Of a DNA stretch of 64,000 bases, positions 39,663 through 63,842 are shown one piece after another. The notes under the pieces are model-generated. The model ran no database searches and had not been told where the DNA came from. It saw only the letters and a program-made list of their open reading frames with translations. Numbering within the stretch: position 1 is the first letter of the stretch; each line of letters starts with the position of its first letter. Made by a program: the position numbers and the translations under genes. Origin of the DNA: a virus; the IMG/VR virus record IMGVR_UViG_3300031715_000002, positions 1-64,000 of that record; one strand, written 5' to 3'.

Positions 39663-39934
39663 TTATTTCCCCAACCTGAACATCGCACGCATCCGCATTG
39701 CCCCTTCTGCCTCGGTAATCGGCTTCTCTGCGCATACCCCATGGCTGCAAATCAATCCACGCGGCCCTGTCCCCATCAATCGGCACACCATCGGGCGCAC
39801 TTCGTAAACGGAGCATCTGTGGTCCTTCAACAGACTGCAATCAAGCGTTCCGGACTTATGCGCCATGAACAGGCTTCGGTCGCCTTCCGGCTCATGGCCG
39901 ATGAACTCAGAGATGCGCTCCCATTCAACCCGCG
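39663..39934 (-). pseudogene. YkgJ (CxxCxxCC) family C-terminal remnant
   Basis: VEWERI..CSLLKDHRCSVYEVRPMVCRL; N-terminus replaced by transposase. Confidence 0.7.
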
Positions 39935-40741
39935 TCTTTGCGGCGGCGAAGGATCAGGTGGCGCTCGTGCATCAACTTCCGGCGCTGCTTGACCTCCATC
40001 GACTCCCTGAGTTCCTTGCGGACGGCATCCAGGCAGTGATTCGCTATCTTGACCACATGGAACTTGTCCACCACGACTTTGGCATTGGGCAGCACCTTCA
40101 GTGCTGCGTCCCTGTAGGGACGCCACATATCCATCGTCACGATATCTACGGCGTTCTTATTCAACCGTTCAGTCATCCACTTGATTACAGTGGGCTTATT
40201 CCGGTCCACCAAAAGGTCGATAAGCGAATTCATCTCGACGTTCGTGAGCACACACCGGGGCTTGCGGATCAGGAACAACTCGTCAATGCCTAACCAATTC
40301 GGCGTCACCGGACGGTACTCGGCGTCGAGCTTGTCCGTGTGCTCCGTGAAGATGTTGCGGACGGTCTTCTCGTCAACACCAACGTCGGCGGCGACTTCCG
40401 TGAACGTGCGCTCCAAGGAACGCTTCTTGATGTACTCGATCAGGCGGCGAGTCATCGTGCGCTTCTCGTCCATGTCGGGGAGAACCTGCTGGAAGGTCTT
40501 TCCGCAGTCGCCGCACTTGTACCGCACCCGCATGACCTTCAGGCCCACCCGGCTTACCGTGGATGGGCGTATCTCCGAAGTGCTGTTCCTCCACGCCATG
40601 CCGATTCAGCTTCGGCGGCGTGACTCCACAGCGAACACAACACACGGGAGCCTTGGTGTACTCTGCCGTAATCACCATGTCGTCGTCGTTGTGGTTTGTT
40701 TCCAACACGTTCCAGTCTTTCAATCCAATGATATTGGGCAC
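39925..40741 (-). pseudogene. ISL3-family transposase, frameshifted (~40550) and truncated
   Basis: Zn finger CVRCG..RYKCGDCGKTF; LGIDE; VTMDMWRPY; VVDKFHVV. Confidence 0.9.
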
Positions 40742-41491
40742 TCTGTCATAATATCAAACATCGGATTACACTGTGGAGTACTCACGGTACTACTTTCGGA
40801 TTCTGCCGTGAAGAAGACTTGCTGAGAGAGACGGCCAGCGGCAATCTCGCAGTACTTCTCTTCGATCTCGATGCCAATACCACGACGCCCAAGGTGCTTT
40901 GCTGCCACCATTGTTGTGCCGCTCCCCATGAATGGGTCCAGGACGGTTTCCCCCGGTCTGCTCCCCAACGAAACAAGCCATTTCATCCAACTGAGTGGCT
41001 TTGGGCAGTGGCTTTGGGCACGGATGCCCATTCTTCTCGCCGATGTCGGTGCTGGAGATGGCGATGGCCTTCGATCCCTTATGCAAATCGGGAGATGAAC
41101 CGTAGAACATGCAGTGGGCAAGCGACGAAAACCCCCAAGCATTCCGGCCACACGCAGCAGGAAGAAACACTCCACCAACGGCTGTGGGGCGGGGGAAGTC
41201 CCACATCATCGTGCCAGCGCAAAAAACGATGGCCCTCTCTGAGTGCTTTATCGCTGCGTCAACCACGGGCACGACCACACTCAAGAAGTTGGCATATGTG
41301 TCGTCGTATGATGCGTACTTCTGCTTGGCTAGGTATTGTGGACGCTTCTCCTTCGATGCGTCATGGTTGCCGAGATTCACGCCGTAAGGTGGGTCCGTCA
41401 ATACCAGATGAACGGGTGCGAGTGCTGGTATAACGTCCCGGCTGTCGCCGTGGTAGATCGTAATTCCGTCCTGTTGGTAGTAAGGTTTCAA
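40720..41491 (-). pseudogene. N6/N4 DNA methyltransferase (beta class) frameshifted by a 13-bp duplication
   Basis: TDPPYG, HPCPKP, LDPFMGSGTT in two frames. Confidence 0.88.
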
Positions 41492-41902
41492 ATGATGTCC
41501 TTGGCGGATTCCGCCGTGTTCAACCACGCTACATTCCGATTTTGCATAGACGAGTTATTGGGGAGAACAGAGTACGAAACTCCACAGTCAAATCCGAATA
41601 GCCTTTTCAATTTGAATCAGCTTTTTCGCGGGAATCATACTCACGGTTCAGCCTTTCAATCTCAACCTCAAACGACATACCCCACAGAGCCTCGAACTTG
41701 TGCCGACCGAGGCGTTCTACTGAAAGCATCCCGGCTTGATGCCTTGCTGGCTTGCCAGAATGGGGTTCTTTGCCACTTTCCCGCCTCTGTGGGCCACGTT
41801 CGGCTCCCGGTTGAGGGATAATGGCACCCCCTCCCTTGCGCGTGGCATTGAGGCTTGTGCACTTCAGTGACTTTTTGCGGATCAGTGGCTTGCGGTGGGG
41901 AA

Positions 41903-42852
41903 TCATCTGGACGGCCAAAAACATTCGGCAATATGGAGCGAAAGAGGGAATGGGATTCTGGCGATCATGGCGCTGGCGGCCTTGCGCCGCGGTGAATTGC
42001 TCGGGAAGTGGGCAGCCACGTCGGGATCTGCTAACCATGCGCGTCCGGAGTGCCCCGGCTGCTTCACTCCGCTCACCGCCACCGCCGCGCTCTGAAACGA
42101 GCCTCCCGCCATCCCCTTCTCGTGCTGATGGAAGTTGAAGCCGTCCACCTTGACGTGCCCCTTGGCCGAAACAGACGCCATCCCGAACTCAAGCGGCCCG
42201 CTGCGCACGATGCGACCGCCCACGTCTTCCACATCGCCCCAGAGGTAGTACGAGCCGTAGTGCGCCTTCGCCCGGCCTACCCACGGCTGCGCGCCCTTAA
42301 CGTTCTCGACCACCATGGGGATATAGCGTGGCGCGAATTCGCATCCGTCAAGTTTCGTGGCAGGGTGATAAATTCCGCAGCGTGCGCAACCATACGCCTC
42401 CGTGGCCGCTTCGCTGGCCTCTCGCTGGATGCGGAAGCAGGCGTCGAACAGAGCATTAAGGCTCTCTAGGCGGTCGCCGAACGGAGAATCCCGCTCCCAC
42501 CTCTGCCACCGAACCTCCGCTTGGCCAGATTCCACGGCATGGCCATGTAGGAGTACCGCTGGCACGGAGGCGAAGCGACAATGCAGGCGGCATCGCGAAA
42601 CTGGCTACCATGGATCGTGCGAACATCCTGAAGCACCAACTCCGCGCCTTCAGGCACAGGCCCATGGTGCGGGCAGTGCTCAATATCAAACCCGATTGCT
42701 CTACCGCCAAGCGAGAGCCAGCCCGCGCTCCATCCGAAGCTGCCTGCAAACAGTTCGATCATTAGAGGCGGGTTCACGCAAAGAGTTCCTGGTTCTTGCT
42801 CTTGCTCATCGTGAAGCCCTCCGTCTTGATTCAGAAATGCTGGCAGGGTCAC
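41903..42852 (-). pseudogene. C5-cytosine methyltransferase-like gene, frameshifted near 42520
   Basis: ELFAG and ASPPCQ in one frame; VENV in the next. Confidence 0.75.
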
Positions 42853-43366
42853 CGAAACGCAGGCGCGGTGGTGGCGTGGCCATTACTGGCTCCGCTGGAA
42901 TAGCGAGCGGTTCGCATTTCTCGCCGACCATCACAGCATCGCAGAAGGCCGCAATGCGCTCTTTGCTTGCGTGCTGGCCGTCCCAGTCTCCACCGTACCT
43001 TGGACCTTCGCCACGATCCGGTGAATGGAAACTACACTGCCCGAATCCCGGCAAGTCCACATAGAGCACTTGGGATGCTCGCTCACCAAACACCACGGCT
43101 GGATCTTCTTTCCAACCCCAAACAAACCCGAGCGATTCGCCGTGTATGCTCAGCAAGCGGCACAGTTCTCCGAGGGACCATTGCTTTACGTCGTAGGCCG
43201 CGCGCCGCCATTTGCCACGGCGGTAATCCTTAGCCCGGCTGCTACGCTTCTGGCAACGGAACAAGGCCACGGCGATTTCGCCGAGTGTCCCGCGTGAAGC
43301 CAACTCAGCATAGTACGCTTTGGTGACTTGCCCGTCGTTCTGCGAGAAAACCTGTGCCGCTGTCAT
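42806..43366 (-). CDS. Hypothetical phage protein
   Basis: VLYVDLP..GQCSFH..Y.G.WDG motif; ATGA overlap. Confidence 0.7.
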   Translation of the reverse strand: MTAAQVFSQNDGQVTKAYYAELASRGTLGEIAVALFRCQKRSSRAKDYRRGKWRRAAYDVKQWSLGELCRLLSIHGESLGFVWGWKEDPAVVFGERASQVLYVDLPGFGQCSFHSPDRGEGPRYGGDWDGQHASKERIAAFCDAVMVGEKCEPLAIPAEPVMATPPPRLRFGDPASISESRRRASR

Positions 43367-43929
43367 GATGGCCGCTCCACTTCAAGTACGTGTGTCAGAT
43401 GCCATCCGCCATTGGCCTTTGGCTCGCATTGCTTAAGGAGCCACGGCACAACACTATCGTGCCATTCGGACAACGGAACCCATCCACCAACGCTCATGCA
43501 ATTCACATCGAAGATATTCGGCTCTTCACTTTGAATTGAGGAGTCAGCAACTATCCAGTGAGTGTGCCGATAGCGGACCAGAATCGGAACCCCCGGAGCC
43601 GTCCATGGGCCTTCCCATTGCACGCGCACCAATCCGAAGCGTGGCCAAGGGTGCAGGCCATCGTTGAACCAAGCCGTACCGCCTATCGCCTTACGTGGAC
43701 TCCAATTGAGTCCAAGACGGTTCAGGCACTCAAACATCAATGTTGGGTTGGTATACCCCTTACTCTCGAAATCGCCCATGTGGGGTCGCAGTGCGTCTGG
43801 GGTTAGCCCGGAAACAACAGCCAACGCCGCCGGGCCACAATTGAAACCCCACTCGTCGCCGGCGCGCTCTGCATCGGACAGCGTGAATCGTGGCGCTACT
43901 AATCGAGAAACAATGCGTGCCGCTGCCAT
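43363..43929 (-). CDS. Peptidase C39-like (papain-fold) protein
   Basis: NCGPAALA..HWIV..IFDVN catalytic pattern. Confidence 0.55.
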   Translation of the reverse strand: MAAARIVSRLVAPRFTLSDAERAGDEWGFNCGPAALAVVSGLTPDALRPHMGDFESKGYTNPTLMFECLNRLGLNWSPRKAIGGTAWFNDGLHPWPRFGLVRVQWEGPWTAPGVPILVRYRHTHWIVADSSIQSEEPNIFDVNCMSVGGWVPLSEWHDSVVPWLLKQCEPKANGGWHLTHVLEVERPS

Positions 43930-43946
43930 ATGGACTTCAGCCTTTG

Positions 43947-44231
43947 TTATTTCGAGAACTGTTTGATTAAGCCCGCCATGTGGGCATCTATCTCAGTGAC
44001 TTCATGCACGTCGAAATTGACGTGAGCCTTTGCCGGATATGCCGCCATGAGAGCATCCAACGCCTGCTTATCTGGCACGGAAACCACAGCGTACTCGCCT
44101 GAGCCGTCCTTAAATCCGCCGATGCTCTGGAAGAATCTCTGGTTGGCCGAAAGCCACTCCGCAGCCTGATGAAAGGTTTCCGCAGTCGGGTTCGTACCCG
44201 GCTTTGGTGAAACGGTGATATGGAACGTCAT
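43947..44231 (-). CDS. Small dimeric alpha/beta-barrel-like protein (DUF3303/MIase-like)
   Basis: GAGGAGG RBS; G.YAVV.V...LDALM..YP pattern. Confidence 0.45.
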   Translation of the reverse strand: MTFHITVSPKPGTNPTAETFHQAAEWLSANQRFFQSIGGFKDGSGEYAVVSVPDKQALDALMAAYPAKAHVNFDVHEVTEIDAHMAGLIKQFSK

Positions 44232-44256
44232 TGTTGCCTCCTCCTCTGAAAGTTAT

Positions 44257-45174
44257 TTATGCGGTGGCTCCGTAGTTTGGTACGCCTGGGAGTTGCGGCC
44301 CGTAAGGCAGCACCGGAACATCGTCCCAAGTACGAGCATCAAGCGTTCGCCCGGCTTTCTTTTTGTCTGCAAATCGCACCATCGGAGCGGCGATGTGATA
44401 AGCAGCACCAGATATTGGAGCAAACTGTCCCCACTGCTTCCAAAGAAACGGCAGTGGCCACGGTCGTCCCATATCAGCGCGATTGCGGCAATCATCGCGA
44501 AGTTTTCTCGCCCAGTCCACTTGGCAGGGGCGCGCGCGAGGACCAGATTCGCCACCACCGATCACCCAATCGAAGTAAGGTAGCCATGAGTTGTAGTTTA
44601 TGACATGCGTATCCCGATAGGGCTGTGGTGTCCAATCCAACTCGCTTAGGAGCGGCTCGCACGATGCAAATATCAGTGATCCAGGGAAGACGCGCTGGAA
44701 TTGGATGATGTGTGGCATGCGCTCATCAAGTCGCCTTTGGTTCTCCAGCGTCACACCGAACATAGCATTACGCGGCCAATCTTTGTCCCAATAGGCAGGA
44801 AACATCCGTACCGCGTTCTCTGGGCGCTTCGTCAAAAATAGCCAAAGCAGATTCGGTGTGCTCACGGCAATATCGAACACGCGACGGCGTAGCGGCTCAA
44901 GTTCCTCGCGGTCCTCAAGCACGTCGCACATAGATCCACAGAACACGCGGTGCATAACGCCAAGTCTCTCAGCCGCCTTGTTCCATTTGAACGGCTGCTG
45001 CCAGTGATTCTCCCCGAAGAAACGGCGGTCTACATCTTGCCCCCAGACTTTCAGGCCAACCCGCTTTGAAAATGATTCGGCGTAGCAATTCTGGCATCCC
45101 TCGCTCACTTTGGTACATCCCCAGATCATGTTAAAAGTGTGCTCCGTCCATTCGATCTTTGAATTTTCGGCCAT
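44257..45174 (-). CDS. DUF5131 (phage Gp37/Gp68) radical-SAM-like protein
   Basis: SKIEWTEHTFN..GCTKVSEGCQNCYA; LTKRPEN; WVIGGGESG. Confidence 0.9.
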   Translation of the reverse strand: MAENSKIEWTEHTFNMIWGCTKVSEGCQNCYAESFSKRVGLKVWGQDVDRRFFGENHWQQPFKWNKAAERLGVMHRVFCGSMCDVLEDREELEPLRRRVFDIAVSTPNLLWLFLTKRPENAVRMFPAYWDKDWPRNAMFGVTLENQRRLDERMPHIIQFQRVFPGSLIFASCEPLLSELDWTPQPYRDTHVINYNSWLPYFDWVIGGGESGPRARPCQVDWARKLRDDCRNRADMGRPWPLPFLWKQWGQFAPISGAAYHIAAPMVRFADKKKAGRTLDARTWDDVPVLPYGPQLPGVPNYGATA

Positions 45175-45686
45175 TACGCCCCCTTCGTTTCCGCACTCGG
45201 CACGCACACCACCAGATCGGCATCTGCCTTGCGCGCCAGACTGCCTCTGATTTCCTCCACCGGCTTCGCTTCAATGCGCTCGATTTCGCGTAGCGCCACT
45301 TCCCGGAAGGTGGTTTCATACGCCGCGCACCAGCCCAACAGGGTGACTGCCACGCCGCCGGCCTCTTGCTGCGGTTGCCCCGCTGGGCGTCCGTAGACAT
45401 GGAAAATTTGCCGCATCACTGGGTCGAACGGGATGCCTTCTGCTTGCGCCAACTCGACTGCCTCTTCGAGCAAGCGGATGGCGCGCTCCTGCGGGGCAAT
45501 ATGGTCCGCTCCGATGCGCGTGCGAATCCATTCGGCTACGCGGCGCTCAAGAAACCCAGAGGGCATCTCGCCTTCGATGATAATCGGCGCAGGCGACTTC
45601 AGGGATTCTATCTTTGTTGGCTCAAAACCGGCCATGCTGCCATCTTGCGCCTTGCTATCAAGGTATCGTTCGTATTCAGCGATCAT
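45174..45686 (-). CDS. MazG-like nucleotide pyrophosphohydrolase
   Basis: ERAIRLLEEAVELAQA..QEAGGV..EIERI. Confidence 0.65.
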   Translation of the reverse strand: MIAEYERYLDSKAQDGSMAGFEPTKIESLKSPAPIIIEGEMPSGFLERRVAEWIRTRIGADHIAPQERAIRLLEEAVELAQAEGIPFDPVMRQIFHVYGRPAGQPQQEAGGVAVTLLGWCAAYETTFREVALREIERIEAKPVEEIRGSLARKADADLVVCVPSAETKGA

Positions 45687-45906
45687 GCAAACAGCCCCAC
45701 CTTCTCGCCTTGCGCCGGCCGCACATCCCACCCGGCATGGTGATCCAATCCAGGCACAATCTCATATCCACGGACGCGCAGCCAGCCTTCCAACTCTTCG
45801 GTAGGCCGGTGCTGGCCAACCCACAGGTTCATGAACCAATCCGAAAGGCGGATGGCACGCTGCTTGCGGTTTACGAGGGCGAGTACGGATTCGGAGAGGA
45901 TGAGGT

Positions 45907-46458: not shown

Positions 46459-46459
46459 G

Positions 46460-49333: not shown

Positions 49334-49336
49334 GGG

Positions 49337-50324: not shown

Positions 50325-50935
50325 TGTGCCGCTACCTCCGCTGTAGGTGCTTTGCGGGTGGCGGCATCGTATTGCTGAATACCCCAGACGATTGCATAGA
50401 GGCACCACAATAAGTGATAGGCGTACTCTTTTCCGTCTGGCAACTCGCAAGTGTCAAACTGAAACCCATCGTGCTTGAAGTCCCGAGCCGCTATCAGCAG
50501 ATCTAGCTTACAGTCTTGGCAAAGCACCTCATCCCGTAGCGCTTCCATGACAGATTGCAACCGATCTCCTTCAAGGTCATAGTATTCAGTTAACTGGGCA
50601 ACGAGGCGCTGCTTAAATAATTCCTCGGAGAATACCTTAGCCCCGTCCCTGCCGCCGTGCGTTCCATGCTGAAGTTTTTCAGCCCAATAGCTCGCATTGA
50701 TGCGCAGTTTGGAATCGCGGAAGAATGAGAACATGTCTGGCAATCGCGCGAATGTCCAGCACCCCATGTCGGCTGCGATTGTGAGAAACCCAGGCCACGT
50801 CACAAGATCGAACCACATATTCCAGTGATTGTCTGGACGCTTAAACTTGATGTGCCGATAAATCCCGCTATCGAGCAAAATGTTGATCTTGTGATCCCGA
50901 ACATCGCGCAGGAAATCTTCAGGGGTTATGCTCAT
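50321..50935 (-). CDS. Conserved phage hypothetical protein
   Basis: FDLVTWPG.L.I..DMG.W.F.RL.DMF.FFR. Confidence 0.75.
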   Translation of the reverse strand: MSITPEDFLRDVRDHKINILLDSGIYRHIKFKRPDNHWNMWFDLVTWPGFLTIAADMGCWTFARLPDMFSFFRDSKLRINASYWAEKLQHGTHGGRDGAKVFSEELFKQRLVAQLTEYYDLEGDRLQSVMEALRDEVLCQDCKLDLLIAARDFKHDGFQFDTCELPDGKEYAYHLLWCLYAIVWGIQQYDAATRKAPTAEVAAQ

Positions 50936-51501
50936 CGCGCAACCTCTTTCTCAGGCGACAATGCCGGATTAGAACAAATCAATCTGATGTGATGCCAGTA
51001 TTCCGCTGTAAGCCAATGGAAGCGCTGCGCGCTGTACCGACGAATGTCCAGCATTCCCAAATGGCCGTCCGAGGCAAAACCCTCAACCGCTCCAACCACT
51101 TCGGCCCCCGGTAGCATTTGTGCTGTGGGATCATGAATCAGGTGCATCCATGCTATTCCAGAGACCAGAATCAATTTGGAGCACTCCAGGCAGGATGGAG
51201 CCATACTCGCGCAAGGCTTGTTGTCCCTCATCTTCACGTGCAACATCCATGATCCTGCTAGGCGTTCGAGAGCGGCGATTATTGCCGCCTGTTCAGCATG
51301 AATCGCCGTTTTTCCACAGTTCCGTTTACATCGGTCGCTGCCATCACACTCAAACGGCCCTGGCTGATGATTGTACCCATGGGAGATGAACCGATTATCA
51401 GCGGAGGCAATGACCACTCCACGCTTGCTTTGACATGGCGAGTACGCCGCCGTTGAGAGAGCATACGGGACCCAAGAAGCAATTTGGGATTCGGTACTCA
51501 T
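50932..51501 (-). CDS. dCMP deaminase-like protein
   Basis: GYN, HAEQAAI, CLECSKLI. Confidence 0.8.
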   Translation of the reverse strand: MSTESQIASWVPYALSTAAYSPCQSKRGVVIASADNRFISHGYNHQPGPFECDGSDRCKRNCGKTAIHAEQAAIIAALERLAGSWMLHVKMRDNKPCASMAPSCLECSKLILVSGIAWMHLIHDPTAQMLPGAEVVGAVEGFASDGHLGMLDIRRYSAQRFHWLTAEYWHHIRLICSNPALSPEKEVAR

Positions 51502-51875
51502 TTCGCCGCCTCTTTCTCCGGCGACCACAGCGCCTCTTGCGGCTCATCGCCATTGCAGGCGCGACCGTCGCTCAATCTCTCTCCCCAGATCCAACGATTA
51601 ACGTACCAGACAAATGCTATCGCCGCATCGCCAGCGTGGCCGGTGGCTTCATCAATTGCGGCTTCCAACCCGTTGCGCGGCGGCACATGGCCAGTCTCTT
51701 TGCTGAACTGCGCAACAATATCAGCATCCTGCGCGGCGAAGTTCAGGCAACCGTACCACGCGGGCAACACGATCTCACTAGTTGGCATCAGCGCGTGAAT
51801 GCGCTCTTGCACAGAGGCAACGGATTGCTTCGTGATGCGCCTTGGCGCACCAATGGCTTTTGACTTTTCCTTCAC
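51498..51875 (-). CDS. Hypothetical protein
   Basis: First gene after promoter and structured leader. Confidence 0.6.
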   Translation of the reverse strand: MKEKSKAIGAPRRITKQSVASVQERIHALMPTSEIVLPAWYGCLNFAAQDADIVAQFSKETGHVPPRNGLEAAIDEATGHAGDAAIAFVWYVNRWIWGERLSDGRACNGDEPQEALWSPEKEAAK

Positions 51876-52032: not shown

Positions 52033-52224
52033 TAACAAATTTCACAGTGTTGGCTAAGCCCCTGTACCCTTTGGCCAGCGGCGTTGCGGTTCCAACTCCA
52101 CGGCCTTTGTCGTCTGCCGTTTCACTGGCTGTGGCGGGTTGTCCAGCAGGGACAAGAGGGCCTTCATCTTTGCGCGCATCCGTGGGTAGTGGGCTACTTT
52201 CGATTCCCGGCAGCTTGAGCGGCT

Positions 52225-53225
52225 CGCCGTCTCCGTGAGTACGTCCAGCGCCGATCTCTGGAGCGGACCTTTACGGAAGTTGGCGTCGATATTGGCGTGG
52301 ACGAGAAGACCATCCGTAACATCTTCAACGAATACGTTGCGGATCTCGATGCAAAGTATTGGCCGCTCACGCCGAACTGGATTGGCATTGACGAACTGTT
52401 TCTCGTCCGCAAGCCCCGCTGCATCTTCACGAACGTCCAGCAACGCACCATCATGGACCTGTTGCCCAATCGAGATCAGGCCAGCGTTTTGAAGTGGCTC
52501 ATGCGGCGACAACTGCGAGAACTGGTGGAAGTTGTCACGATGGATATGTGGCGACCCTACCGGAACGCTGCGCTCGAAGCGATGCCGAACGCCGTGGTGG
52601 TCGTTGACAAATTCCACGTTGTCAAAATGGCGAACCATGCTCTCGATTCCATCCGCAAAGGTCTTCGAGACGGCATGGACCTGAAGGAACGCCGGAAGCT
52701 CCTGAGAAGCCGCCACTTGATCCTTCGCCGCCGCAAGGATCTCAGCGACAAAGACTACGCAGCGATGGAAGAGTGGACGAACGCCATTCCCGCACTGTTC
52801 GCCGCCTACCAAGCCAAAGAGGACTTCTTCGACATCTATGAGTGCAAATCGAAGGTCGAAGCGATGGAACTCTACGACACCTGGAAGGCTTGCCTGGACA
52901 AGCGAACCGCCGCTGCCTTCTTCGAGTTGATCCGAGCCGTGGATAATTGGCGTCCCGAAATCTTCAACTACTTCGATTTTCCAGGGGCCACCAATGCGTA
53001 CACGGAGGCCGCTAACGGCATGGCGAAGGTCGCCAATAGATTGGGCCGGGGATACTCGTTTGAGGCCATCAGAGCCAAGGTATTGTTCGGACAGGCCAAG
53101 CATATCAAGCGCCCCAAATTCGGAGAAACAGCGCTGGAAAGCGCTGACACCTACGGTGTGTCCCTGCCAAGTTTGATCGAGATGTTGGACGCAAATCATT
53201 CAGACACACTCAATTCCGAATAGCC
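52225..53225 (+). mobile_element. ISL3-related element copy 2: 5'-truncated transposase + terminal repeat
   Basis: IGIDE, MDMWRPY, DKFHVV, TNAYTEAAN..RGYSF; ends CACACTCAATTCCGAATAGCC. Confidence 0.9.
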
Positions 53226-53624
53226 GATCTGCGGATTCTTCGGAATCGACACCTCCCCGATCCACTCGAAGCCGCCCGCCTCGAACAGATCCACCACCGC
53301 CCCCCGGAAGTCCCGCCGCCCCATGTACCCGTGCTGATTCTTGTACCGAAGGAGCTGCTGGATGTGAATGCACACGTTCCGCCCCGGCTTCATCACCCGC
53401 AGCAGTTGGTGGATGAAGAACCGCATATGCAGCCCGAACTGCGACCCCCGCATATCCACCCCGTCCGGGTTGTTCCCGATATCCTCCGGCTTCCCCGAGT
53501 ACATAAAGAGCGCCCCGAACGGGATCGAACTCACCGTCAGGTCGATACTCTCCGGCTCCAGGTGCCCGAACATCGCCGGAATATTGTCCTCGTTCCAGAT
53601 CTGAGCGTTAATCCCCACAGACAT
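53226..53624 (-). pseudogene. DNA methyltransferase N-terminal half interrupted by ISL3 copy 2
   Basis: SIDLTVSSIPF..YSG..DIGN..LRVMKPGR; cut at IPKNPQI. Confidence 0.75.
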
Positions 53625-54798
53625 CCTCCAGGAATGGCTGTACCACGCCATCCGCAAACATCGGCTCCAACACTGCATCCCCCGCCGGTTCGGTACCATC
53701 CCACCCGCGCGGCCACGTATTCGCCTCAGTCAACTCACGAATCCGGGCTTCCTCCTCAGGGTTAATGAGGTCGATCTTCGGCTGCCCGACTTGCTCTGCT
53801 GCGTCGTTAATCTCCCCCTGCACACCCAGCACAGTAGACAACCCGAACTCGCGTGCCTCCATCGTCAACGGCCCGACCCTCTGCTGGTTTTGCGACAGCG
53901 TGCCATCCTTCCGCCGCTCGCCGCCCGCCTTACGGATGCGATGGGCGTGGTTGAAAGTCAGCTCCTCGTAGAGCGGCTTAAGCCGAAGAAGCGGGGCTAG
54001 GTAAGACCATTCCGGCCGCTCTACTACGCCGCGCAATGCCTTGTCTTGACTCGCCAGCGGACAACCGATACATCCGGTCCGTGCGTTGATCTCCACGGCC
54101 TCATCGCCGCCGTAGACGTTCGCCACCATCCGCGTCGGGTATTCGTGCTCCCCGAACATTAGCCAATCCCACACGTGGCATACGCGCCAGTGAAGCAACG
54201 GAGCCAAGGTATCCGCCACCGCCTCCGGAGTCGCCTCCTGGAACCATCCCTGCCCGCACTCCGCCCCATCCCGCGAGCAACTCATGATAATCCTGCTGTC
54301 GCGCGCCGCAGATTCCCCTAGCCGGACCCCCGTGAGCATCAGGAGCTTCTCGCCGGCGGTTTCCCGGAGTTCCTTGAGCGCGTTCAACATCGGCTCGATC
54401 TTGATCTGGCTGGTACACCAGCGAAATCGGTTCTTCGGCGGGGGAACCCCGCGGCCGAACATGTACACGAAGTAACGGTCGTCCATCGCCGGTAGAACCA
54501 CCCGCGCGCTAAAGCCCTTGCTCCGCAACTTCTCCATCATCCGCATCGCGGATACCTGGAGCGGTGGTATCTCCATCCGGGTGTCCGCATAAAGGATCGT
54601 CAGCGACTCCGGCCGTGGAATCACGCCACTCTCGATCAGGTGCGCGACAATCGTCACCGTCGCACTGGAGTCTTTCCCTCCGCTGTAAGCGATGGCCCAA
54701 TGCTTGAACCGCGGAGCGTACGCCCTCAGCGACTCCACCGTTAACTCGATGGATTTCGGTAGTGTCAGTCGCTCCGACTCGAAGAGATTTGCGTTCAT
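53608..54798 (-). CDS. PAPS-reductase family protein, DndC-like
   Basis: AYSGGKDS, RWCT..KIEP, GVR..ES..R, RTGCIGCP, GPLT.EAR. Confidence 0.88.
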   Translation of the reverse strand: MNANLFESERLTLPKSIELTVESLRAYAPRFKHWAIAYSGGKDSSATVTIVAHLIESGVIPRPESLTILYADTRMEIPPLQVSAMRMMEKLRSKGFSARVVLPAMDDRYFVYMFGRGVPPPKNRFRWCTSQIKIEPMLNALKELRETAGEKLLMLTGVRLGESAARDSRIIMSCSRDGAECGQGWFQEATPEAVADTLAPLLHWRVCHVWDWLMFGEHEYPTRMVANVYGGDEAVEINARTGCIGCPLASQDKALRGVVERPEWSYLAPLLRLKPLYEELTFNHAHRIRKAGGERRKDGTLSQNQQRVGPLTMEAREFGLSTVLGVQGEINDAAEQVGQPKIDLINPEEEARIRELTEANTWPRGWDGTEPAGDAVLEPMFADGVVQPFLEDVCGD

Positions 54799-56897: not shown

Positions 56898-58289
56898 TTA
56901 CAAATTGACGATATGGAAATCGGAATCCGAGAGTCGCGAGATAAACCACTGCAACCCGGTTTGCTTCGCAGCGGCAACGAAGCTATCAAAGTGCGCCGTG
57001 TCCAAGCATTCCAGCCCGTCTGCGCACACGATGCCTAAATCTTTCGCGCGCATCGCGCCGATCTTAACCCAGAACTGCGTGCGCCGCTGCGTGTTGATTT
57101 CCGAGAGCGGTACGCCGTTGAGGTAGGGCACGCCGGCCTCGACCTTCAGCCCTGGTATCGGCAGATTCTTCATCAGGTCTTCGCGGATGGCGTCCACATG
57201 AGCTATTGCCGCTGTCATGAGCGTAGATTTCTTTTCGAGCAAGTCTGCCACGCGCTCAGCCTCTTCAGCTATCTTGACGGTTTGTGCGGCCCGCTGTTGG
57301 CCCTCGGCGTTCTTACGCGCTTCAGCCTGTTCAGTTATCAACCGCTCGCGCTCCGGTCGCGTGTCGTCTTCCAGTTGCTTCAGCGCCGCCTGATGTTCGG
57401 CCATCAGGGTATCGACCGCAGATTGCGCCAGCGCCTTAGCAGCATCGGTACGCTTTGTGCGCTCCGCTTCCAGCAGCCTGATCTGCGCGTCTATCTCTTT
57501 GTCGATGGTTTCCTTTTCAGCGCGTAGCAACTCGGAGATATTCATCCGCGCTCCAGCCGTGTGCTTCTCGGCCGCAATGCGCGTCTCGGTTTGCTTGCTG
57601 GCAAGCGCTTGGATTTCCTCTTGGATGGCTTGTGCCTTTGCGCCCCAATCGACGCCATTCTGGGCTTCTGGGCCGATGGACTCACGCAACTGCTGTCCGT
57701 TAATCTTCTTGCTCTTGGCCTCCCGGTTCACATCCGTCCGGAGATCGTAGACGGTATTCGCAACCAACTTGAGAGCGTCAAGCGCCGGCAATTTCTCAGC
57801 CTTCTTGAGCGCGGCATTGACCTCCGGCGATGCCACATCGGCTACTGCGGCAATGAGCTTCGCCTTATCCAGCGTGAGCGGGATAGTTTCCAAGATAATC
57901 TCAGCCTGCCGCTCCTCACTGGCATTCATCGCCTGCCCAATTGGGTCGATGGAAACCGAATCAAGTATGGATTCCAGAAACGTAGCGGGCGCCCCGAGCC
58001 TACCGGCTGAACTGCTCTTGATGCTGATGGCCTTTGCTTTCCCAGGCTCGAACGACCTGCGAATCTCCCAAGTCTCGCCCTCGTCTTCGATGACGGCGCG
58101 AATCTCGCCGCTAGTAGCGCCAGCGCGGAGCATACGCGGTTGCGCCTTGCCGAAAAGGCCAACAACCAACTGGATTAGGCTTGTCTTATTCGATCCATTT
58201 TTGCCAAGAGCCGCGACACACTCCCCGCATTCGAGAGAGAACGTCTCGAAGCCTTTTATGTTGCTGGCGGCGAGTGATTTAATCCTCAT
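56898..58289 (-). CDS. SMC/Rad50-like AAA ATPase
   Basis: MRIKSL...NIKG, GKNGSNKTS, long coiled coil, ADGLECLD. Confidence 0.85.
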   Translation of the reverse strand: MRIKSLAASNIKGFETFSLECGECVAALGKNGSNKTSLIQLVVGLFGKAQPRMLRAGATSGEIRAVIEDEGETWEIRRSFEPGKAKAISIKSSSAGRLGAPATFLESILDSVSIDPIGQAMNASEERQAEIILETIPLTLDKAKLIAAVADVASPEVNAALKKAEKLPALDALKLVANTVYDLRTDVNREAKSKKINGQQLRESIGPEAQNGVDWGAKAQAIQEEIQALASKQTETRIAAEKHTAGARMNISELLRAEKETIDKEIDAQIRLLEAERTKRTDAAKALAQSAVDTLMAEHQAALKQLEDDTRPERERLITEQAEARKNAEGQQRAAQTVKIAEEAERVADLLEKKSTLMTAAIAHVDAIREDLMKNLPIPGLKVEAGVPYLNGVPLSEINTQRRTQFWVKIGAMRAKDLGIVCADGLECLDTAHFDSFVAAAKQTGLQWFISRLSDSDFHIVNL

Positions 58290-58555
58290 GGCTTTCCTCC
58301 AGATGGAGCGCATCCAGGTCGTGGCCCAGTGTCTTCAATGACAGCCTTGAGCGTCCCGAGTACGGCGTTGCACCAAACGATACTGGCAGTGGCTTCCTCA
58401 TAGGCATGGCGACCCTTGACCGCATCCTCCATCACCTCTGAGCCAGTCCATGCAATGTAGTGAGTCTGAAGGCTGGCCATCAGTTCGTCCTTCAACGCCT
58501 GCTGTTTGGCGATGGCTTCGCGGATTTGGGATTCAGTTAGCATTAGTTTAACCAC
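58286..58555 (-). CDS. Hypothetical protein
   Basis: Overlap-coupled. Confidence 0.5.
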   Translation of the reverse strand: MVKLMLTESQIREAIAKQQALKDELMASLQTHYIAWTGSEVMEDAVKGRHAYEEATASIVWCNAVLGTLKAVIEDTGPRPGCAPSGGKP

Positions 58556-58557
58556 GG

Positions 58558-59037
58558 CTATTTAACAAACACTTGCTGCGGCACTGCCTCCGCAACGCGC
58601 TTCTGCTTCGCTCTCAGTTTGGCGGCCATCTTATAAGCTCGCCCTCCGATGTTGTTCATGGATGACCGCCCCTCATCTAGCCATCGGTCGCGCCACTGTT
58701 CTCGCTTGGCTGGATCGTCAATCAATTCCAGGCCAGCCTTGTACGTGCTGCGGTCCTGCTGATACCCAATCAGGCAGGACTCGAAGCATTTCGCCAACTC
58801 AGCCGATTTCTCTTCGGTGACGCGGGTTATCAGGGCATCCAGCGTGCAACCGAAGTGCTCTTGGCAGTATTCCTCGTGGCCTCCTAAAAGAAACAGAGGT
58901 ATCTCGATTGCCCCACCATCAATCGGCTTAAAGCCGTACTGGCCACTTCCGAGAAACAGGCAGGCCACTAGCGCCACGTCAAGTGATGGAGCCTCAATGG
59001 TGTATGGATCGCTTGGGTTAATGATTTCGTAGAGCAT
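58558..59037 (-). CDS. Hypothetical phage protein
   Basis: MLYEIINPSDPYT motif. Confidence 0.65.
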   Translation of the reverse strand: MLYEIINPSDPYTIEAPSLDVALVACLFLGSGQYGFKPIDGGAIEIPLFLLGGHEEYCQEHFGCTLDALITRVTEEKSAELAKCFESCLIGYQQDRSTYKAGLELIDDPAKREQWRDRWLDEGRSSMNNIGGRAYKMAAKLRAKQKRVAEAVPQQVFVK

Positions 59038-59057
59038 GGATTTTGCTATCTTCCGTC

Positions 59058-59240
59058 CCCGTACCCGGACCCGTACCCGTACCCGTACCCGTACCCGGAC
59101 CCGGACCCGGACCCGGACCCGTCCCCGGACCCGTCCCCGGACCCGTCCCCGTACCCGGACCCGGACCCGGACCCGTCCCCGTACCCGGACCCGGACCCGT
59201 ACCCGGCCCCGGACCCGGACCCGGACCCGTACCCGGACCC
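59058..59240 (-). repeat. Hexamer tandem repeat encoding a Gly-(Tyr/Ser/Asp) peptide (ORF 59046-59261)
   Basis: CCGGAC/CCGTAC/CCGTCC units. Confidence 0.9.
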
Positions 59241-59590
59241 TATTTGAAGTTGCGTAGGCATTTCTCAGACTCCTTCGAGCAAGGGATTATCTCGATCCTG
59301 CCTTGCACGAAATTTTCGGGCGCTTCAACCGACACCTTGCCGCCAGAGATACCAGATACGGCGATCTCAGTACAAGATAATGCCCCCTGCCAACTCCAGA
59401 TACGCCGTGTTTCCTTCAGTGTTACTTCTCCACCGTTTACTGCTGTGACGATGCCCACATGCACGCCAGCCGAGCAGCACCGCACGACACAGTATTTGCC
59501 GATAGCAGCGTGGTTACCGTTTTGCGCTGGCTGGCTGAAAAGCTTTGCCAATTCGCGCGCTTGTCCGATAGTCAGTTCGTCTATGTTCAT
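59240..59590 (-). CDS. DUF6948-like phage protein
   Basis: VVRCCSAGVHVG..RRIWSW..LS..EIA..G..EIIPCS. Confidence 0.7.
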   Translation of the reverse strand: MNIDELTIGQARELAKLFSQPAQNGNHAAIGKYCVVRCCSAGVHVGIVTAVNGGEVTLKETRRIWSWQGALSCTEIAVSGISGGKVSVEAPENFVQGRIEIIPCSKESEKCLRNFK

Positions 59591-59599
59591 AGGAATCCT

Positions 59600-60979
59600 T
59601 TACTCAAAACTCAGCGCATCCGTATGTCGCTCGCGTTTGCCTTTCTTGGTTTCGGCCTTGGGTGGCTCGCCTGCAGGACCAGTTAGGCCAATCGACCCCA
59701 TGGTCTGCCACTTCGGGAACTCACCCGGCTCCTCGATGACGCGGTATAGCACACCCTCGTAGATGCACTCGGTACCCAGTTTCAGGTCATCCGGAGCGGG
59801 CATCTCGCCTTTGGCGTATGTGATGATCGGCGGTTTGCCAGATGCCGTTTCCTGGGGTTTCTGGGACGTTTGCTGGCCTGTTGGCTCCGGGGTGGCAGTA
59901 GAAGGCTTGGGTGCCTCCTGGGCAGGCTCAGCGGGCTTGGGAGTGGCGTCGGCGGCGGGCTGCGGAGCGCTGCCGGCCGGTTCCGTTTTCATGCGCACGG
60001 TATCGTCCTGCTGCTTTTTCTTTTGCGCTTCGATCTTTTCCAAGATAGCCAGTTTGGCGGCGGTGGGCTTCTCACCTTCCTCTGGCTGTTCGTTCAGCGC
60101 CATCACGTCTTTCCACGTGGCTACGCCTTCGCAGATGGCCATGTAGATGCCGCGGAGGTTCACGTACTCGCCGGGCGTGCTGGCGGACACCGGATGCCCT
60201 AAGTATCGCTCAATCATGGACGGCAGGATGCCCTTGTCCGCGAAGGCGTCAAGAATCTTTTTCTTGGTGCCCTCCGGGTCGCTCATCGCAGAATTGGCAA
60301 GCGTATCCCAGATCTTACGCTTCCACTCCTGTTTGTAGTGCGGCGGGAGCAACTTTTCGGCCAGCGTGCGGATGGCCTTGCTCACCGATGCTGCTTCCGA
60401 TTGGGAAACTTCGGCGTCCGTCGCCTGAATGATGTACACGGTATCGCCGTAGCTGTTCTCGCGTGTGGCAAGCGGCGTTTGGCCCTGTTTGATTTTCCGG
60501 CGCTCAACGGTTTTCGGAGTCGTGATGACCCGCCAATAGGCGTTATTGCTTTCGATATCCCAGACACCGACACGTGTTACGCGCTTTTGTTCGTCTTCTG
60601 CCAGCACAATGGTTTGCACGTCGATGTTGCCAGCCTCATAAATGACGGCCTCTAGGAATCTGATAGAGAATCCGGTGGGCCACTCTTCGGGAGCCTTCAG
60701 CAACCGCTCGCGTTTGTCTAAGTCGGCCCAACCTTCTGGCGCGCGGCTGATTGGCTTGACGTAGAGTGCTTCTGCGCAGAACTCGCTATCGCGGCAGAGC
60801 TTCATCATGTTCTGCCGCACGTCGTCCCATGAACGCCGGTTGCGGATGGCGACCATGATTCTGGCCTCGACCATGGCGCGCTCTTGCGCCGCCAGCGCGA
60901 CGGCTACTGGGTCTTGGTTCCTCGCCACTGCGTAATCATCGCGGCGGACGATATCGGTTGATTCTCGTAAAGGTGTCAT
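59600..60979 (-). CDS. Putative single-strand annealing/recombination protein
   Basis: Directly after YqaJ; GFSIRFLE, WDIESN, SKAIR. Confidence 0.6.
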   Translation of the reverse strand: MTPLRESTDIVRRDDYAVARNQDPVAVALAAQERAMVEARIMVAIRNRRSWDDVRQNMMKLCRDSEFCAEALYVKPISRAPEGWADLDKRERLLKAPEEWPTGFSIRFLEAVIYEAGNIDVQTIVLAEDEQKRVTRVGVWDIESNNAYWRVITTPKTVERRKIKQGQTPLATRENSYGDTVYIIQATDAEVSQSEAASVSKAIRTLAEKLLPPHYKQEWKRKIWDTLANSAMSDPEGTKKKILDAFADKGILPSMIERYLGHPVSASTPGEYVNLRGIYMAICEGVATWKDVMALNEQPEEGEKPTAAKLAILEKIEAQKKKQQDDTVRMKTEPAGSAPQPAADATPKPAEPAQEAPKPSTATPEPTGQQTSQKPQETASGKPPIITYAKGEMPAPDDLKLGTECIYEGVLYRVIEEPGEFPKWQTMGSIGLTGPAGEPPKAETKKGKRERHTDALSFE

Positions 60980-60988
60980 CTCTTCTCC

Positions 60989-62035
60989 CTACTTCCAGTT
61001 TCTTGGGCACAGCAACTTGCGCGCGCCATGCTTTGTAACTATCTGGCTTTGTGCCGCCAGTTGCTCGAACGTTTGCGCCCACCAGTCGGGATACGTTTGG
61101 TCCGCTACTAGCGCGTATCGCTTCAGTAGCTCAACCCGCCACCCCAACTCCCGCGCTACCTTTTCCCAGTCCACCCCAACGCTATCCGCATCCTTGCGCC
61201 ACGTCACCTTGCCCAGGCTGCTATTCAGGCCGTCCGCATCGCCAATCAACTGCTTGACTTCATTGCTGAGCGATTCTTTCTCCTGTTCGGCGCGGTTGAA
61301 CTCGTCGCGCGCCAACTTCAGGCGCATCAGTAGCGCCTCTTCCTCTCCCGTGGCCTGCCGTAGCACTTCCACGTTGCGCGGGAATCGCTGCCTGAGATAT
61401 TCCTTGGCCGTCTCCGTACAGCCGATGGGCGGCGCTACGCGCGCCAGCACGTGCTCACGCCAGAACTTTTCGCACTCTTCCAGCAGCACCGCTTCCAAAT
61501 CGGCATCGAAGTGGATGCGGTAAATACGAAGATCATCAAGCCCGCAGATTGCCGCGGCATCGGACCATGGCAGGCCGGTTGTGGAACAAGCCCACTGCAA
61601 CTGAAGGCTCACACGGTCGGGTACCTTATCGGAGCCAGTCTCGCCCCATTCATAGGCCTGGTCCCAAGACACCGTTTTCGCATCAACCATCCCGAGCGCT
61701 TGGATTCCAGCGGCAGGCACATAAATCGGCGTGGCAGAAGACGCTTCGCTACTGATTACGAAAGCATCGGGGCTTACTACCTGCCATTCTCGGTCGGGAT
61801 GCCGGATGGTTTCATCGAACCAATAGCATTTACACCTACGCTCATCGCCGTACCACGCGACTACGCCACGTTCCAGGTATTTTCCGCGGCGCATTCTGGC
61901 GTTTGGCGGTTGCCGCTTTACTAGCCCCAGCTTATCGGCGTAAACTGAGAACCTGTCGCGGCGCGTATCTAGGCCAACGACGGCACACACATCACTGCCA
62001 CCAATTCCACGTGCGCGTATGCGATTGTCAATCAT
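60989..62035 (-). CDS. YqaJ-like viral recombinase/exonuclease
   Basis: RARGIGGSD, G.YLE, SPDA, DAKT, QLQW. Confidence 0.9.
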   Translation of the reverse strand: MIDNRIRARGIGGSDVCAVVGLDTRRDRFSVYADKLGLVKRQPPNARMRRGKYLERGVVAWYGDERRCKCYWFDETIRHPDREWQVVSPDAFVISSEASSATPIYVPAAGIQALGMVDAKTVSWDQAYEWGETGSDKVPDRVSLQLQWACSTTGLPWSDAAAICGLDDLRIYRIHFDADLEAVLLEECEKFWREHVLARVAPPIGCTETAKEYLRQRFPRNVEVLRQATGEEEALLMRLKLARDEFNRAEQEKESLSNEVKQLIGDADGLNSSLGKVTWRKDADSVGVDWEKVARELGWRVELLKRYALVADQTYPDWWAQTFEQLAAQSQIVTKHGARKLLCPRNWK

Positions 62036-62264
62036 TTACTCCTCTTCCGCCTAACTGCCTGCCAACCGCTTCGCCACTCGAAACTTTCAGCGCTCGCAAG
62101 CGGATAAGGATTATCGAGCAATCGCCTTCCATCACGATTCGCTCGCATACCTGCTCTCTCTGCCTTTAGCAAGGCTCGCTCATGCGCTTGCTCGGCCTCC
62201 ACTTGCTCATCCACCATAGCGATTACGCTGGCCCAGTCCACGCGCTCAAGAGATGAGGGGAAGC

Positions 62265-62828
62265 TCATTGCCTCAACCTCCACGCCAGTTTTGCCGCCAG
62301 CCGCGCATCGGCCAGTGCATCGTGCGCGCCATCAACCGGAATCCCCAGAAATTCGCATACCGTGGTTAGCTTTAGGTTGTTCGGCTTGTCTGCGCGGTCG
62401 AAGTACTTCCAGGCGGCCAATTGCAGGCAGTCCAACACGTGGTAGCTGCACGGAAAGAACTGATCACCGTACAACCGTCGTAGCCTCGGAAAATCGAACG
62501 TCAGCGCATTGTAGCCAGCCAACCGCGCCATGCTGTACGGATTCCCCGTTCGCTTCGAGATCATCTCAATCGACCGGTATGGCTCCATCCACTTCGAGAA
62601 CTTGCGCACGGCATCCGCTGGCGGGATGGCTTCAGCCTTCCAGACTTCGCGGTCGTAGCCGTTCATCTTCAGCGCTTCGGGATCGGCATCGACTTCGTTG
62701 AATTGCAACTTGGCCTCAAACTGCGAGACTTCCGTGCCTGAATCGTCAACGGCAATTGCCGCCAACTGGATGTCCGGTTGCGTGTCAAGCAAGCCGCCGG
62801 TTTCGAGGTCGAAGAAAATGGTGAACAT
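62265..62828 (-). CDS. DnaQ-like 3'-5' exonuclease
   Basis: DLETGG, GYN..FD, AHDALADA. Confidence 0.9.
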   Translation of the reverse strand: MFTIFFDLETGGLLDTQPDIQLAAIAVDDSGTEVSQFEAKLQFNEVDADPEALKMNGYDREVWKAEAIPPADAVRKFSKWMEPYRSIEMISKRTGNPYSMARLAGYNALTFDFPRLRRLYGDQFFPCSYHVLDCLQLAAWKYFDRADKPNNLKLTTVCEFLGIPVDGAHDALADARLAAKLAWRLRQ

Positions 62829-62861
62829 GTTTATCCAGCCAGAAGCACAGCCAAAAGTCTG

Positions 62862-63842
62862 GGCTTTCCGGATTTCGTTGTGTCGCTTCGTACATTGTTC
62901 GCTCTCATTCATTTAGTTCTCTCTACGGATTTTGCTGTGGCGGAACACACTCAAATCCGGTGTTCATACTGATCTGTTCCGGCTCCGCTACGAGTTCGCA
63001 TAGCGGCAAGACCGACTGCGATAACCGCTTGGCAGCGATCTCGCAATACTTCTCTTCAATCTCGATTCCGATGGCCCTTCGGTAGCACTGCTTTGCGGCC
63101 AGCAATGTGGTTCCGCTGCCCATGAAGGGGTCCAAGATCACGCCATCCGGCGCATGGCGCATGAGGGATGCCAACAAGGGCAACGGCTTACGGTGCGGGT
63201 GCTGGTTACGCCCCACGCATCCGTTACCCGTCCTAAATCGGAGGATCGAAAAGGAGCCATCATCTACCCGACGCCAGCCAGCCCCCCGCACGAAGATCGG
63301 CTCGTGGTTATAACGCCACGGCCCCCCGTTTAGGCCACCTTCAGCCTTATCCCAAACCAGCCTGTAATCCCAATCGCCCGGAGGCTCTGGTAGCCGTGGG
63401 GTTGAGAAGATCAGCATTGGCTTGTTGGTGGCACCGATAAGCCAATCACGCACCGCACAATCCAAGTCGTTAGCGATCACATCGCCGTGTCTGCCGTAGC
63501 TTCCCGCTAACGCCTGAAGGCCGTAGGGCGGGTCAGTGATGACGCAATCCACTTTTGGCAGATACGATAGGATTTCCTTGCAATCGCCGTGATAGATCGT
63601 GATGCCGTCTTCGTTGTAGTATGGCTTCAGCATGGCATCCCGCTCCCGTTGTAAAAGTTCACGTTCCGCTCTCCAGTCCAGTTCGCCCCACAGTGCGCCG
63701 AACTTATCCGGCCCGTCGTAGGCTTCACACCACGCAATCTCCCGGTCACATCGTTCGATTGCGGCGGCGTAGCTGGTAATCGGGATTGGCTTGCCCATAG
63801 CGTTGAATCCGCTATCGGCATCAGTCTCAATTTTGGATGGCC
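62862..63842. mobile_element. Non-autonomous ISL3-end cassette (copy 3) carrying an intact MTase
   Basis: Left end GGCTTTCCGGATTTCGTTGTG with an inverted site pair; right end (rc) GGCCATCCAAAATTGAGACTG matches the 53225 end at 15/21. Confidence 0.65.
62923..63633 (-). CDS. N6/N4 DNA methyltransferase (beta class), apparently intact; in-frame upstream extension
   Basis: TDPPYG, HPHRKP, LDPFMGSGTT, IGIEIEEKY. Confidence 0.92.
   Translation of the reverse strand: MLKPYYNEDGITIYHGDCKEILSYLPKVDCVITDPPYGLQALAGSYGRHGDVIANDLDCAVRDWLIGATNKPMLIFSTPRLPEPPGDWDYRLVWDKAEGGLNGGPWRYNHEPIFVRGAGWRRVDDGSFSILRFRTGNGCVGRNQHPHRKPLPLLASLMRHAPDGVILDPFMGSGTTLLAAKQCYRRAIGIEIEEKYCEIAAKRLSQSVLPLCELVAEPEQISMNTGFECVPPQQNP

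Follow-up and report, generated by a model that had tools for sequence, protein, structure and literature searches.

Three ISL3-linked loci in a soil phage genome

The stretch of DNA analysed here, referred to as the window, comprises bases 1-64000 (64 kb) of the 96,199-bp IMG/VR virus record IMGVR_UViG_3300031715_000002, the genome of a soil phage that is rated complete by CheckV. At three places in the window, terminal sequences of ISL3-type insertion sequences lie next to genes or gene fragments for DNA methyltransferases (MTases), and at two of these a truncated ISL3 transposase gene (tnp1 and tnp2) is present as well (Table 1). We designated the three places copy 1, copy 2 and copy 3, and the adjoining MTases MTase1, MTase2 and MTase3. 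The region probably arose through three separate insertions, all since decayed, of a single lineage of passenger-carrying ISL3 insertion sequences associated with phages.

The three copies have a 14-bp motif in common, CACNNNNNAWTCCG (CAC-N5-AWTCCG). Ten exact matches to this motif were found in the window; in a shuffle control the mean number of matches was 1.32 and the maximum 5, and none of the 100 shuffles reached 10. The remaining ~32 kb of the genome contained no match. Nine of the ten sites are located in the three ISL3-linked places, five at 40762-41603, one at 53205 and three at 62869-62959. All nine had been listed in an earlier note on this DNA, and all nine were recovered. The tenth match lies inside an unrelated open reading frame (ORF), with no element features seen nearby. 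It was rejected as part of an element and is probably due to chance, given that 1.3 matches are expected.

The relatedness to ISL3, as put forward in the earlier note, was borne out by Pfam searches. The tnp1 product matched PF01610 (DDE_Tnp_ISL3; 1.6e-29, profile positions 1-126 of 240) and PF13542 (HTH_Tnp_ISL3; 1.5e-10). The tnp1 frame with the CxxC zinc-finger stretch had no Pfam match of its own but could be aligned by eye with the transposase of L003, and close homologues carry PF14690. L003, a contig of a Bryobacteraceae (Acidobacteriota) metagenome-assembled genome, contains the closest intact relative of the element; it is also the best cellular link of the phage and carries in addition an endolysin-like gene 43% identical to a window gene. 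The tnp1 DNA is 73% identical to the L003 transposase gene. The product of tnp2 is 64% identical to that of tnp1; its alignment with the intact L003 transposase covers residues 102-428 of the latter at 66% identity, and it lacks the region of the helix-turn-helix domain (PF13542) and the zinc finger (PF14690). Terminal repeats starting with GG are present at 41603 (GGCTATTCGGATT), 53225 (GGCTATTCGGAAT) and 62862 (GGCTTTCCGGATT), and relatives pair such repeats as left and right ends.

Followed inward from 41603 on the minus strand and from 62862 on the plus strand, the two ends show their parts in one common order. Both start with GGCTWTYCGGATT..GTG, i.e. GGCT(A/T)T(T/C)CGGATT..GTG, followed by a spacer of 44 bp (41603) or 43 bp (62862) containing GAACAnnGTACGAA, and by two sites in inverted orientation, 6 bp apart. 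This confirms the common layout described earlier, and we regard the two ends as homologous left-end modules of ~100 bp, in which the terminal site is called site a and the inverted pair sites b and c. Both modules adjoin beta-class N4/N6 MTases, in opposite orientations, again in agreement with the earlier description. An alignment of ten left ends, taken from the window, L003, one metagenome contig and seven virus contigs, showed that the invariant columns are those of the three sites, that the spacers drift and that the similarity ends ~8 bp past the third site. The multi-site left end, first proposed from the window, is in this respect a feature of the family. A composite transposon of 21 kb, running from 41603 to 62862, was rejected because the two left ends face away from each other.

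Copy 1

The terminal inverted repeat of copy 1 agrees in sequence with the ends of relatives and with the right end of copy 2. MTase1 is situated between the left-end module and a second module just upstream of tnp1 (the tnp-proximal module, with sites d and e), and its start codon is found 13 bp past site c, within the element; the right boundary of the element is gone. The segment between the two modules is referred to below as the cargo slot. It is a genuine passenger slot, holding other genes in relatives, and MTase1 is its putative passenger in copy 1; movement of cargo together with the element is seen in relatives. MTase1 is a pseudogene: alignments to homologues change frame at about 41006, and the shift in frame is due to a 13-bp tandem duplication of GTGGCTTTGGGCA at that position. 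Deleting one GTGGCTTTGGGCA copy in silico yields an MTase1 ORF of 252 aa with DPPY, KP..L and FMGSGTT motifs. A promoter-like sequence of the window, TCCACA-18-TATTAT, overlaps site e.

Copy 1 can be read as the left two-thirds of an element with cargo in sense orientation, which would have decayed through the duplication in the cargo gene, the frameshift in tnp1 and the loss of the 3' half of the transposase gene and the right end by deletion. The boundary of the deletion is marked by a small CxxC-rich ORF (39666-39953, minus strand; YkgJ-like by eye), whose start lies ~25 bp within the truncated end of tnp1; a search of PHROGs with this ORF gave no match.

Copy 2

The tnp2 remnant is directly followed by CACACTCAATTCCGAATAGCC, ending at 53225, which shows that the motif belongs to the terminal inverted repeat. 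Immediately beyond the repeat lies MTase2, the remnant of a larger phage MTase. In a homologous ORF of L175, residues 119-208 of 383 align to 53510-53226, ending one base from the end of the repeat at 53225. The C-terminal part of MTase2 was not found in the genome. Copy 2 is a right-hand remnant, consisting of the 3' three-quarters of the transposase gene and the right end, which truncates a resident MTase and carries none. It had been described as sitting inside a third MTase gene; its right end indeed abuts and cuts MTase2, but the left part of copy 2 is missing and it does not lie as a whole within the gene.

Two neighbouring genes deserve mention. Directly upstream of the broken MTase2 lies a PAPS-reductase-like gene (53608-54798, minus strand; phrog_12882 at 4.8e-161), relatives of which were found on 87 virus contigs with differing neighbouring genes. 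A resident dCMP-deaminase-like gene (50932-51528, minus strand) is located ~700 bp to the left of copy 2; it shares 69% protein identity (69.5% DNA identity) with the gene carried as cargo at locus L164 (L164:142-735). That a gene neighbouring the element here is slot cargo in L164 could be a trace of capture or a coincidence.

Copy 3

Over 79-98 bp the left end of copy 3 is 96% identical to that of L164, 91% to that of L163 and 86% to that of L003, and the homology ends at the site pair. MTase3, the intact MTase next to this end, runs antisense to the element. It has 574 phage homologues, most of which end at residues ~210-216, indicating that the last ~25 codons of MTase3 are a read-through into the site pair. 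As the earlier note had it, copy 3 lacks a transposase. No credible second end was found for it either; a candidate right end at 63822-63842 was rejected, as its agreement with the consensus at 13 of 21 positions is no better than chance and no duplication accompanies it.

MTase3 might accordingly be an ordinary resident gene, next to a solitary left-end remnant of ~100 bp to which it is linked by accident, the rest of that element having been deleted as far as the gene. Its nearest relatives (52% identity, in L083 and L084) are phage MTases without ISL3 ends or a transposase nearby, it is co-oriented with the neighbouring phage genes, no site e, transposase remnant or right end is seen to its right, and no target duplication can be demonstrated. 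However, in locus L268 the same kind of antisense MTase-like ORF leaves through the site pair within a unit flanked by target duplications, and in L164, L165 and L163 antisense cargo likewise starts right after site c. Moreover, if the deletion was random, its end point would have to fall only a few codons from where the protein naturally ends. We consider a resident MTase3 unlikely, albeit an alternative to be taken seriously. If MTase3 is a passenger, copy 3 would correspond to the left portion of an element of the L268 type, with its cargo in antisense orientation, the tnp-proximal module, transposase gene and right end having been deleted.

MTase1 and MTase3 are 37% identical and are not sisters; in a quick tree each is nearer to phage MTases free of insertion sequences than to the other. 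The low similarity fits independent origins of the two genes.

Two further observations concern the surroundings of copy 3. Upstream of the conserved MLKPYY start, the MTase3 reading frame continues without a stop for another 77 codons (63637-63867, minus strand). This stretch, possibly a small gene of its own or else an extension of the N-terminus, had no Pfam or PHROG match. On the other side, the first ~27 codons of an exonuclease ORF (62265-62912, minus strand), encoding MNESEQCT... (62833-62912), come from the left-end module of copy 3, the DnaQ-type domain beginning near an internal ATG at about 62832. The L003 left end has the same outward-facing ORF start, and the end may supply a gene start or expression signals to the flanking gene.

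Table 1. Features of the three copies in the window, transposase-free derivatives and methyltransferase cargo of related elements
Feature	Position	Strand	Remarks
tnp1, ISL3 transposase remnant (copy 1)	39925..40741	-	GTG start; 1-nt frameshift near 40565; ends at DDE profile position 126/240
MTase1, beta-class N4/N6 DNA methyltransferase pseudogene in cargo slot	40720..41491	-	Same sense as tnp; TTG start
tnp-proximal module of copy 1	40762..40810	-	Site d 40797-40810; AGTAC..GTACTC; site e 40762-40775; all in right-end orientation
13-bp tandem duplication	40995..41020	.	GTGGCTTTGGGCA x2, perfect; frameshifts MTase1
Copy 1 subterminal left-end part	41505..41582	-	44-bp spacer with GAACAGAGTACGAA (41565-41578); inverted sites b 41525-41538 and c 41505-41518
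Copy 1 terminal inverted repeat (left end, IRL)	41583..41603	-	GGCTATTCGGATTTGACTGTG; includes site a 41583-41596
Tenth motif match	51821..51834	-	Inside unrelated ORF
tnp2, ISL3 transposase remnant (copy 2)	52219..53223	+	Without ~100 N-terminal residues
Copy 2 right terminal inverted repeat	53205..53225	+	CACACTCAATTCCGAATAGCC; sequence type as right ends of L003, L165 and L268
MTase2 remnant, N-terminal part of larger phage methyltransferase	53226..53699	-	phrog_67, E 1.4e-4
Copy 3 left-end module	62862..62959	+	Site a 62869-62882; 43-bp spacer with TTCGTACATTGTTC; sites b 62926-62939 and c 62946-62959
MTase3, intact beta-class N4/N6 methyltransferase	62923..63636	-	Antisense to element; Pfam N6_N4_Mtase 1.8e-19; CcrM-type NCBIfam match
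Transposase-free derivative	L258		577 bp
Transposase-free derivative	L259 222-1034		813 bp
Transposase-free derivative	L268 536-988		453 bp
Transposase-free derivative	L255 5894-6189		296 bp
Transposase-free derivative	L256 3130-3402		273 bp
Methyltransferase cargo	L166		N6_N4_Mtase 1.7e-47
Methyltransferase cargo	L268	antisense	240-aa ORF; DPPY and FPGTG motifs; reads out through site pair like MTase3
Methyltransferase cargo	L258		577-bp cassette; class-I methyltransferase by motifs
Methyltransferase cargo	Vibrio phages K256, K251 g2		D12 class, 1.4e-16

Architecture of related elements

The intact element of L003 (2666-4678) has left-end sites at +7, +64 and +84, exactly as at 62862. They are followed by two small ORFs, a site 20 nt before the start of a 428-aa transposase gene, the transposase gene itself and the right end. 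Alignment of six tnp-proximal regions showed conservation of AGTAC..GTACTC, of site e (CACAnnnnAATCCG) and of a leader with a TG-n-TAtccT element before the start codon; site e and the leader are kept in L003, L165, L268 and L164. The site before tnp in L166 is a full copy of the right-end repeat, from which we infer that site e is an internal right-end-like site. The direct sites before tnp had earlier been taken to suggest autoregulation, and this fits the conservation of site e and its overlap with a promoter-like element.

Target duplications of 8 bp flank whole cargo-bearing units in L268 (TTAACTTG), L165 (GTTTTTTT) and L035, as well as transposase-free derivatives of 296-813 bp in L255, L258 and L259. 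The 453-bp derivative of L268 showed a duplication match of 7-8 bp; none was seen for the derivative of L256. Further elements with 8-bp duplications are those of K256, K251 g2, Val-yong3, Fraca and Seahorse. On one virus contig a transposase-free derivative and a full element lie 2.7 kb apart.

The motif sites could in theory be regulatory operators of the phage, for example of the MTase genes, and have nothing to do with transposition; pairs are found at the edges of MTase genes, and a palindromic pair resembles an operator. Yet beside transposase genes these very sites make up the terminal repeats, accompanied by 8-bp duplications, they are also present in relatives without an MTase and in short transposase-free elements, and, apart from the match at 51821, no site is present outside the three ISL3-linked places. 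We find operators hardly credible as an explanation. In this lineage the motif is the core of the terminal inverted repeat and presumably the binding site of the transposase, and it recurs inside the left end and before the transposase gene.

In more distant phage elements (Bcep22, K256, Fraca, Val-yong3, Seahorse and the Massilia locus L035) the terminal site is followed by a spacer with a TATAAT-like hexamer and then by a second, direct site, which is located just before the start of the first cargo gene. These sites indicate that a multi-site left end is general in the clade. The ends of L035 are near-identical to those of virus contig L315.

Cargo genes in the slot

The genes following near-identical left ends are all unrelated: the end in the window is followed by MTase3, that of L164 by a dCMP-deaminase-like gene, that of L163 by a 168-aa ORF and that of L003 by two small ORFs. 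Unrelated cargo beside left ends that are 86-96% identical is the strongest evidence obtained that genes in the slot are replaced more rapidly than the ends diverge. In L165 the cargo is a radical-SAM-like gene.

MTase cargo was found in several relatives (Table 1) and belongs to at least four Pfam families or motif types. The 240-aa ORF of L268 was called an MTase from motifs and a weak PHROG match only, and had no Pfam, NCBIfam or PDB sequence match. The cultured Vibrio phages K256 (L344, OZ195684.1, 2391-4874) and K251 g2 (L351, OZ195767.1, 1391-3874) contain a 2,484-bp element that is 99.96% identical between the two. The element is present at different sites with different duplications (GAAAAGAG and GAAAAAAG), and the homology is limited to the element, showing that an MTase-carrying ISL3 unit moved between phage genomes. 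The annotation of the two GenBank records is limited to 'DNA methyltransferase' and 'transposase'. In Lysinibacillus phage vB_LspM-01 a Dam-type MTase gene (7.9e-31) lies directly upstream of an ISL3 transposase gene; this is adjacency only, and no inverted repeats or ends were found for this element.

It could be argued that the association with MTases reflects where the elements land or survive, with MTase genes as preferred or tolerated targets, and not what they carry. The right end of copy 2 cuts MTase2, in L008 a Dam fragment abuts a truncated transposase gene, and in L261 and L262 homology to a C5-methyltransferase (phrog_363, 1.5e-37, residues 3-231) ends at a site pair, an ambiguous case in which the boundary was not placed. 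In K256, K251 g2, L268 and L258, however, the MTase is inside the inverted repeats and the duplications are outside, MTase1 starts within the element, and the duplicated targets are short A/T-rich 8-mers and not MTase sequence. Landing sites are thus an improbable explanation. At the level of the family, MTases of several classes are a recurrent cargo, though not the sole one.

A sample of 52 non-redundant phage ISL3 elements had 112 slot ORFs. Pfam families of the slot ORFs in this wider clade included Lar (5, three of them redundant), Bro-N (4, redundant), YopX (3), Tad2-like and PAPS_reduct. Neither MTases nor Lar were among the 25 families listed for 150 flanking ORFs. Slot genes of virus loci L269-L343 also included ORF6C, a Fic domain and a Thoeris anti-defence Tad2-like domain, several of the counts coming from near-identical elements.

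Proposed structure and activity of the element

As the relatives show, an intact element begins with a left-end module of ~100 bp, in which a spacer of 43-44 bp separates site a from the inverted pair b/c. There follow a cargo slot of variable content, starting ~8 bp past site c, a tnp-proximal module of ~75 bp with site e between the -35 and the extended -10 of the transposase promoter, a transposase gene of ~428 codons and the right end, the whole unit inserting with an 8-bp target duplication. Site e may be the vestige of an internal right end, through which transposase-free cassettes made up of left end, cargo and internal end could move, and it may repress tnp as well. MTase cargo would be kept because it protects phage DNA from restriction.

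No intact transposase gene is present in the 96-kb genome; both tnp genes of the window are truncated and one is also frameshifted. It follows that none of the window copies can now move on its own. The window contains remnants of members of the ISL3 family, not functional members. The claim of an active mobile system within the phage was therefore not borne out, since there is no intact transposase and each copy has one end. The view that such elements ferry MTases holds in part. MTases of unrelated classes recur in related phage elements, some with 8-bp duplications, but the cargo is not MTase-specific; in the window itself, MTase1 occupies a genuine slot, though as a pseudogene, while copy 2 breaks an MTase. 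Independent capture of MTases is plausible, and the elements might conceivably swap the methylation repertoire of the phage.

Several points weigh against reading the region in this way. Empty-site alleles were looked for, but no close phage relative was found that could show any. Each window copy retains one end, so that a target duplication cannot be checked here, and none was found for the elements of L003 and L166. The single-base frameshift of tnp1 is possibly an assembly error. In the wider clade, 1 of the 112 slot ORFs matched a DNA-methyltransferase Pfam family, an N6_N4_Mtase. Enrichment for MTases, though plausible, is therefore clear only in the close subfamily, where numbers are small, the calls for L268 and L258 are at motif level and the window was itself chosen for its MTases.

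A more far-reaching possibility is that this phage-specialised ISL3 lineage acts as a vehicle for cassette exchange. The slot between sites c and e, direct transposase sites used as alternative ends, would then allow DNA-modification and counter-defence genes (MTases of several classes, deaminase, radical-SAM and, in the wider clade, Lar and Tad2-like) to be captured, swapped and passed on between unrelated phages, either together with the transposase gene or as transposase-free cassettes. We put this forward tentatively, as a rather doubtful extension of the data.

Comparison with known systems

Passenger-carrying members of the ISL3 family are known. ISPpu12a is an ISL3 element of 3,372 bp with a czcD-like passenger (PMC4447125), and the ISPpu12 isoform is described in a citing preprint as encoding TnpR, a regulator of transposition (Christie-Oleza 2010, cited in bioRxiv 10.1101/2023.06.07.543989). 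Like the window lineage, ISPpu12 and ISPpu12a carry passengers between the left end and tnp and encode a DDE transposase of the ISL3 family. Their inverted repeats are likewise of the GG..CGGATT type, and their 8-bp duplication has its counterpart in relatives of the window copies. At 80 genome loci, many relatives were likewise found to have 0.7-3.4 kb between left end and tnp. In contrast to these elements, the window lineage has a transposase that is only ~35-45% identical and is found mostly on virus contigs; a close transposase was present in 1 of 401 sampled genomes of the phylum. Its left end has an extra inverted site pair, a conserved site is present at the tnp promoter, and its cargo is of phage type (DNA modification) and not metal resistance or regulators.

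The record of Burkholderia phage Bcep22 (AY349011.3) contains 'putative insertion sequence boundary' features around gp34, gp33 and the ISL3 transposase gp32. This phage-borne ISL3 element resembles the elements described here in having two small passenger ORFs upstream of tnp inside the repeats, and a left end in which the terminal site is followed by a direct copy right ahead of the first cargo gene. It differs in its transposase (39% identical), in lacking an inverted partner site and site e, and in its cargo, which is not an MTase. The element of K256 and K251 g2 is similar in that an MTase directly follows the second left-end site, in the ~43 nt spacing from terminal to second site and in the 8-bp duplications, but its transposase is also 39% identical, its MTase is of the D12 class (alpha-type) and not of the beta class, and the element is intact and apparently moved recently.

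The transposase-free, two-ended units with duplications found in the family are comparable to mobile insertion cassettes and to derivatives resembling miniature inverted-repeat transposable elements, and copy 3 resembles the left part of such a unit. Copy 3 itself is not a mobile insertion cassette, as it has one end only and no target duplication.

In a limited literature search, which is not proof of absence, we found no description of multi-site ISL3 ends, of a promoter-proximal site or of phage ISL3 elements with MTase cargo. Phage genomes are generally held to contain few insertion sequences, which are considered a burden to them. A lineage living mainly in phages, with a defined cargo slot, transposase-free cassettes and repeated MTase cargo, would, if true, be a little-described route for the exchange of anti-restriction and counter-defence genes. 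To our knowledge, the recognition of ends by ISL3 transposases has been poorly studied, and the multi-site left end together with the promoter-proximal site offers concrete DNA targets for such a transposase. For this phage the outcome is more modest: three past insertions, one dead cargo MTase, one live MTase that is probably cargo as well, and one MTase destroyed by insertion.

Genome setting

Megablast of positions 39500-64000 against GenBank phages gave no match. A pattern search of IMG/VR with the exonuclease gene adjoining copy 3 yielded no relatives, and contigs found through the PAPS-reductase-like gene share that gene only, with no synteny and no empty-site alleles. Bases 1-125 and 96075-96199 of the genome repeat each other (~125 bp), showing that the record, although given as linear, is either a closed assembly or terminally redundant.

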